Shown here: piece after piece, positions 47,248-47,645 of the stretch
Position numbering within the stretch: the first letter of the stretch is position 1
Layout of the letters: each line of letters opens with the position of its first letter
Assembly (NCBI GenBank): GCA_951406725.2
Contig: OX597820.1
Coordinates: 4,774,001-4,838,000, forward strand
From: Octopus vulgaris
Taxonomy: Eukaryota
Reading direction: 5' to 3'
DNA: 64,000 nt
Program-made: the position numbers and the translations under genes
The notes under the pieces: model-generated
The model's input: only the letters and a program-made list of their open reading frames with translations
The model's database searches: none
What the model was told of the DNA's origin: nothing

Positions 47248-47645
47248 ATATAAGTTTATGAAAGAATGGAGTTGAACGACTTGTTAACAAATTTCTCCTT
47301 GAGAGCAGTCAGCTAAAATTTTTTTGTGCATTTTGATGTCGACATAAGTACCTTGCCTTTCCTGATGAGAAATCTGCATAATGTACTCCTTATTTCTTCG
47401 GAATTAGGAATATGCAGCCTTCGAAACATATGTCGAAAATAAAGGAAATTTGTTAACAAGTCGTTCAACTCCATTCTTTCATAAACTTATATTTTTAAAA
47501 TAAACTTGCAAATTTCCGCACGAAAGCACGTAGTCTATGCCCTAGGGACGTAACTTCAACCGTGTTCTTTCTGATGTGAATTTGCTACCCAGGTATCGGT
47601 TATCTTTCGAATTATCCTTAATACGATAATTCCTTCAACTACTCT
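47248..47645 (+). mobile_element. ~400-bp non-coding hammerhead element with an inverted 5' duplication, inserted in (TA)n
   Basis: 48-bp inverted repeat 47248-47295 / 47445-47492 encloses the hammerhead; (TA)n on both sides. Confidence 0.75.
47351..47445 (+). ncRNA. Type I hammerhead ribozyme, canonical core, long stem II
   Basis: uuuc-CUGAUGA-GAA..CUGCAUA..UCCU..uuc-UUCG-gaa..AGGA.UAUGCAG..UUC-GAAAC-AUAU-GUC-gaaa; distal stem I ccuu/aagg. Confidence 0.85.

Follow-up and report, generated by a model that had tools for sequence, protein, structure and literature searches.

A hammerhead motif in a 64,000-nucleotide stretch of the Octopus vulgaris genome (hereafter, the window) was traced to a retrotransposon insertion at 47296–47645 on the plus strand. 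Our analyses make it probable that this insertion is the 5′-truncated 3′ end of a 3.5-kb Hydra-type Penelope-like retrotransposon and that the family's conserved type I hammerhead would, by prediction, cut only when two copies pair through the palindromic stem III. The window copy is most likely an ordinary truncated, single-ribozyme insertion of an abundant Penelope-type element and an inert by-product, since the insertion contains no ORF and no second ribozyme and its cut site is predicted to be paired off. The family is a variant lineage of a known kind of retrotransposon, and its hammerhead motif is real but was partly over-read in an initial annotation made from the sequence letters.

The insertion and its 3.5-kb family

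The insertion sits, as the initial annotation had it, between two (TA)n target tracts (47208–47252 on the left and 47646–48025 on the right). Its longer arm (47296–47645, plus strand) corresponds to the pseudo-LTR and tail of the element, belongs to subfamily A and stops at what we term the family's 'long' 3′ end. The second arm (47248–47295, minus strand) is inverted and truncated, lacks the ribozyme core and is an exact reverse complement of 47445–47492, which confirms the 48-bp inverted copy noted earlier; the last bases of the left tract overlap the end of this arm. The inverted arm ends at the family's 'short' 3′ end, a terminus shared to the base by 22 of 87 family hits. A tail (47493–47645, plus strand) separates the short from the long end and, in tandem copies, continues into the 5′ region of the ORF.

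Across the family, 3′ ends fall at two fixed positions, 47492 (short) and 47644–47645 (long), with three further hits ending elsewhere. A (TA)n tract adjoins the long end in 44 of 51 cases and the short end in 29 of 30; of the seven long ends without one, four continue into the next tandem unit and three have short TA runs. From these two fixed 3′ ends meeting (TA)n, we therefore interpret the window insertion as a long arm truncated at 47296 plus a 48-bp inverted short arm. An inverted truncated 5′ arm of this kind has been described for Penelope-like insertions (PMC8557442). The family as a whole displays the layout of EN+ Penelope-like elements, with partial tandems (pseudo-LTR), an inverted truncated 5′ copy and a one-sided tail. 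A tblastn search found no further piece of the family's ORF elsewhere in the 64-kb window. The window also contains tandem 171–184-bp repeats (5836–6320, 16072–17078, 18797–19313 and 61896–62379), which we take to resemble octopus SINEs.

A search of the 2.8-Gb genome with 47300–47645 returned 2,763 first-look candidates, a figure that is not a copy number, and the 40 that were scored share 94–100% identity. An exact 23-mer spanning the predicted cut matches the genome 705 times. Many family copies extend upstream into an ORF, and tandem copies repeat with a period of 3,544 bp, giving a family unit of ~3.5 kb. Among loci retrieved with an ORF probe, 24 of 25 carry the hammerhead unit downstream of an ORF that encodes a reverse transcriptase (RT) followed C-terminally by a GIY-YIG endonuclease (EN). 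The linkage to a Penelope ORF that had been proposed as a check on genomic copies is thus present in these retrieved loci, and it bears out the reading of the motif as a Penelope-like type I hammerhead. In two tandem copies (L066 and L067), the long 3′ end is followed by a pyrimidine-rich, splice-acceptor-like stretch that leads to a CAG ~30 nt before the ATG. A 5′ intron is known in Penelope elements.

In one locus (L053), a 713-aa open frame joins the RT (YRDD) and GIY-YIG domains, the one-ORF arrangement of EN+ Penelope-like elements. Atlas neighbours of the protein are RVT_1/GIY-YIG clusters at 0.94–0.97, and its 19 homologs are 35–48% identical, the two named ones coming from Argonauta hians and Octopus bimaculoides. 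A Pfam scan of the 713-aa frame gave no significant match, and a PDB sequence search gave only chance-level ephrin hits. Marks of the Hydra clade in two loci (L045 and L069) include SDKT (DKT for DKG), the C-terminal EN and RWL rather than RWK. CxxC and CxH flank the conserved E and N (CGICNSE ... CLH), and a CCHH motif is absent by inspection at the position where we assumed it would lie. Two further Hydra-clade traits, (TA)n insertion and a hammerhead, are both present.

A CxCX5C linker between RT and EN was found in none of 16 distinct linker sequences from the family. The linker is found in 14 of the 19 homologs, and the other five stop before the EN and lack an EN motif. Because the linker is absent, we file the family, placed by sequence motifs and by-eye comparison with Hydra-1_Obim, as a Hydra-type variant rather than a standard member. 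The protein without the linker was probably still working as the family continued to insert in (TA)n, because dN/dS between the linker-less subfamilies B and C is about 0.1: 0.09 for the RT (261 codons), 0.10 for the EN (122 codons) and 0.12 for the 30 codons that replace the linker, each value coming from one sequence pair with dS near saturation. Alternatively, the linker-less family may have been mobilised by the protein of another family. One locus (L029) contains a neighbouring, different Hydra-type ORF with a CxCX5C linker (minus strand of the oriented locus, ~2–1147), and linker-bearing families therefore coexist in the O. vulgaris genome.

The hammerhead and its predicted pairing

The motif has the conserved type I core (CUGANGA / GAAA / UH) and three helices with stem I open, and its stem III is stable only as a predicted dimer. 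Direct read-out recovered most of what the initial annotation had described. The core elements CTGATGA (47362–47368), GAAA (47423–47426) and GTC (47432–47434) are all present, with N7 being A in subfamilies C and D. Stem I pairs TTTC/GAAA and CCTT/AAGG around a 3 × 3 internal loop (5′ strand 47350–47361, partner 47435–47446), and stem II is 54 nt long (47369–47422). Stem III is the palindrome ACATATGT at 47426–47433, so that the stretch 47423–47434 holds the core GAAA, the palindromic stem III ACAUAUGU and C17, with the predicted cut at 47434/47435. All of these features lie on the plus strand. A type I hammerhead descriptor, applied to both strands of the window, gave three matches: this motif and two in a 493-bp unit discussed below. 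The covariance-model search that had been suggested did not add support, as Rfam produced 90 matches in the window that include no hammerhead family and none on the motif (E ≤ 1), a miss that is likely due to the long stem II.

The C-UUCG-G tetraloop that had been proposed to cap stem II did not survive. Its letters are present, but a competing register, AUUUC/GGAAU around a UUC loop, is favoured and conserved. Folding of stem II gives pair probabilities of 0.08–0.18 for the tetraloop register versus 0.71–0.80 for AUUUC/GGAAU, which is 1.8 kcal/mol better. Among 72 aligned copies, T47395 occurs in only five, including the window copy, and C in the other 67; of 15 sequences compared, eight preserve the C-G pair that would close the tetraloop and three preserve the pair next to it. 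Pair probabilities, the rarity of T47395 and the poor conservation of the register led us to reject the cUUCGg cap. Loop sequences differ in subfamilies C and D. Folded on its own, stem II reaches −12.6 kcal/mol, compared with −6.6 ± 2.3 for shuffles (7 of 500 as good). This energy and the small number of descriptor matches point to more than a chance motif, whereas the stability of the whole 126-nt region is not unusual (z −1.13).

Nor does the window copy stand as the best catalytic candidate. It carries two rare changes (47350 and 47395) and a weak stem I, with a predicted closing probability of 0.16 versus 0.53 and 0.92 in typical subfamily A and B copies. Its cut site is predicted to be sequestered by its natural 5′ flank, where 47339–47346 (plus strand) is the predicted partner of 47429–47436. 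With 30 nt of flank, this pairing has a probability of 0.96–1.0 in subfamilies A and B and is weak or absent (0–0.3) in C, D and E.

Subfamily A has four sister subfamilies: B (~95% identical to A), C, D and E, the last with 1,214 exact motif matches. Across six subfamily representatives (61–95% identical), none of the 11 core columns varies, while 51 of the 81 columns in the flanks do (Fisher p 6e-5); this test uses homologous columns and includes two representatives without a tail. Non-core hammerhead columns vary at 34 of 84 positions in the same representatives (p 0.007 against the core). Changes are seen at N7 (U or A) and N17 (C or A), positions where the hammerhead consensus tolerates them. 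Selection on the hammerhead core is well supported by these alignments.

The detailed fold is moderately supported, with thin covariation. Stem II measures 54–55 nt in all six representatives, which also keep the asymmetric internal loop. Pairing holds in 87.8% of cells across the 15 chosen sequences, compared with 34–45% when the register is slid, and every one of the 15 has a paired stem III palindrome, with G-U in four cells. Compensatory changes, to which the initial annotation had pointed as a sign of function, occur as three pairs that change on both sides but show no excess, given that 368 of 500 shuffles reach that number. Of the 500 shuffles, 26 attain the covariation score, and several subfamily changes break pairs.

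Folding predicts that the hammerhead acts as a dimer, because monomer stem III has a probability of ≤0.04 in seven copies and because the active double hammerhead (−43.8 kcal/mol) lies near the dimer minimum (−44.1 kcal/mol). The double hammerhead also lies below twice the monomer minimum of −18.2 kcal/mol. The earlier suggestion that the palindromic stem III reflects a dimer design fits the pairing across the 15 sequences as well as these folding energies, and dimer action has been proposed for PLE hammerheads (PMC4209133). We consider it unlikely that the hammerhead of the same element instead cuts efficiently as a monomer, with the long stem II contacting the stem I internal loop and thereby replacing the usual loop 2. 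Invertebrate hammerheads that cut as monomers, and do so well, are described as typically having a stem III of 2 bp with a tetraloop (PMC7229834), and the constant stem II length and asymmetric internal loop in 6/6 representatives would suit a tertiary contact of this sort. Set against this are the low monomer stem III probability (≤0.04), the self-complementarity of the loop in 15/15 sequences and the fact that a candidate contact between stem II and stem I was not identified.

Junctions at the predicted cut

Under the dimer model that we favour, the RT/GIY-YIG protein would nick (TA)n, and reverse transcription would begin downstream of the ribozyme at either of two fixed internal positions, giving the long and the short arm. 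The palindromic stem III would pair two RNA copies, leading to a cut of the element's RNA. Uncut or re-joined RNA would serve as the template of most insertions, because these span the cut site, with ends up to 210 nt downstream of it. A small share, <1% of counted motif copies, would be copied from RNA that had already been cut, and the arms left behind would begin with the base that directly follows the cut. Internal RT starts, a tail and a mostly uncut template have been shown for another element (PMC11167929).

A simple junction test at the cut versus control sites is weak. Copies with a 5′ side that breaks exactly at the predicted cut account for 11 hits (9 events), compared with 6, 8 and 3 hits at control sites; most of the 11 control hits inspected, those of the sites with 8 and 3, are subfamily E or non-junctions. 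Three fold-back patterns, assigned by hand from matched letters, were found at 14, 11 and 18 loci, or 41 after three near-identical C7 loci are counted once. Twenty of the 41 were set aside as ambiguous (palindrome-centred or with at least two shared bases), four of these being on the TCGA that straddles the cut. Within the 21 unambiguous cases, the longer arm starts at +1 in nine (seven if two one-base-ambiguous cases are assigned to +2), while any other start position accounts for at most two, apart from four C-like loci with uncertain numbering. The binomial tail for the +1 excess is 1e-4 to 0.014 at a per-site expectation of 0.1 to 0.2. In five fold-backs, both arms run from +1 with 1–5 untemplated bases, versus one and one at matched control starts (0.045). 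The +1 fold-backs are suggestive of a footprint of cutting, and only suggestive because position coverage is uneven and the patterns were chosen after the first result.

Fold-backs are also common along the whole region and cluster at palindromes, with five at stem III, six at TTCGAA and four at TCGA, the last a palindrome that has the cut site at its centre. The five at stem III (L157–L159, L166 and L168) are insertions centred exactly on the palindrome. This distribution would accord with a slightly more remote alternative than monomer cutting, in which binding or folding (e.g., RT docking near the internal starts or RNA dimerisation) is what preserves the motif, there is no cutting in vivo and the +1 junctions arise from microhomology at TCGA. 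Such a role would also agree with the 705 exact matches that cross the cut versus 11 hits that start there and with the finding that hammerhead mutants of another element still transposed in vitro (PMC11167929). Evidence against the favoured model includes the finding of no RNA-seq reads beginning at the cut of that element (PMC11167929). However, the 11 catalytic positions are invariant and changes at N7 and N17 follow the pattern expected under selection on catalysis, and the five two-arm +1 fold-backs with untemplated bases, versus one and one at controls, also speak for cutting.

Taken to its full extent, the cutting model describes a cephalopod Hydra-type lineage with a working, Rfam-invisible 54-nt-stem-II hammerhead that cuts in the germ line, the +1 fold-backs being relics of reverse transcripts that ran to the end of cut RNA, and with strict (TA)n targeting kept after loss of the zinc linker. 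We put this combined account forward tentatively and rate its chances at somewhat below even. If it is true, the linker is not what aims Hydra-type elements at (TA)n.

Relation to known ribozyme-bearing elements

The window contains a second hammerhead-bearing sequence, the 493-bp unit (28805–30087), which has a 68-nt stem II. This unit occurs genome-wide, with 1,398 first-look candidates, in tandem arrays that are 100% identical, and none of 20 loci has an ORF of 150 aa. We read it as a very young retrozyme-like family. The initial annotation had presented our motif as a second family that shares the design of the 493-bp unit. The two are indeed unrelated in sequence (best blastn E 1.6, word size 7), so that we rejected kinship between them, and a long stem II is common to both. 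Rather than a small element standing on its own, 47296–47645 is the truncated 3′ end of a 3.5-kb family that encodes RT and endonuclease. We regard it as largely refuted and highly improbable that the 350-bp unit resembles the 493-bp one in being an independent non-autonomous retrozyme (circular RNA element). Short copies that lack an ORF are indeed numerous, and the same window holds a tandem family of retrozyme-like character. Yet 5′ truncation positions are scattered, copies extend into the ORF, no short tandem arrays were seen in 30 loci and the tandem period is 3.5 kb, in place of the short non-coding tandem unit of non-LTR retrozymes. Unrelated type I hammerheads with a stem II of 32–80 nt are found in locus flanks, five with a palindromic stem III (L033:3670+, L039:2821-, L071:2875+, L071:391- and L082:2262-) and one with a short stem III (L115:230-302-), and long stems II therefore look common in the O. 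vulgaris genome.

Literature searches returned no report of long or extended stem II hammerheads in Penelope elements or retrotransposons, within a coverage that left out most subscription papers, and nothing on the O. vulgaris family among the matches listed for octopus hammerhead ribozymes; PMC8557442 alone matched a search on the linker. Hammerheads in Penelope-like elements are already known, and their role is called unclear in PMC8557442. To these the family adds a much longer stem II that is conserved across subfamilies and missed by Rfam. It also offers a possible genomic record of cutting, where the RNA-seq described for another element showed none (PMC11167929), and an example of insertion aimed at (TA)n in the absence of the linker to which such targeting has been ascribed as a hypothesis.

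The closest counterpart is the Hydra clade, including Hydra-1_Obim (Craig et al., 2021; PMC8557442). Like our family, Hydra-clade elements have one ORF with RT and C-terminal GIY-YIG domains, DKT, RW(K/L), and CxxC and CxH around E and N, together with a hammerhead in the 3′ repeat, (TA)n insertion and an inverted truncated 5′ arm; by eye, the start of the Hydra-1_Obim protein matches the family motif by motif. The O. vulgaris family differs in its lack of the CxCX5C linker, its Asn-rich inserts and a unit of 3.5 kb compared with 'generally <3 kb', a size given descriptively and not as a strict limit. Its hammerhead sequence is not that of Hydra-1_oBim, and its stem II of 54–55 nt compares with the 10–27 nt that a by-eye reading of File S2 gives for its Hydra entries. 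The Naiad_Ovul row of File S1 from the same study is marked 'HHR_half_core', and its methods place the second core half 35–50 nt away; this entry may be a long-stem-II hammerhead that the descriptor missed.

The PLE hammerheads of Cervera and de la Pena (2014; PMC4209133) resemble ours in being type I motifs within a pseudo-LTR, with an enlarged helix II, a palindromic helix III, a G10.1-C11.1 pair and proposed dimer action. Here, in contrast, helix II is a three-segment 54-nt arm that far exceeds their 6–8 bp, and there is no extra base between positions 9 and 10.1. Animal non-LTR retrozymes (PMC7229834; bioRxiv 10.64898/2026.07.22.740005) likewise share the type I fold, a short stem III and kinship with the PLE pseudo-LTR, whereas the unit described here belongs to a coding 3.5-kb element and was found in no short tandem arrays. 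The Poseidon element PAc of Anolis (Frangieh et al., 2024; PMC11167929) has, like our family, two fixed 3′ ends past the hammerhead, separated by a tail, as well as AT-rich targets and a mostly uncut template. PAc belongs to another clade, and its ORF starts inside the hammerhead, whereas the tail is ~150 nt in the O. vulgaris family and the ORF starts downstream of it.
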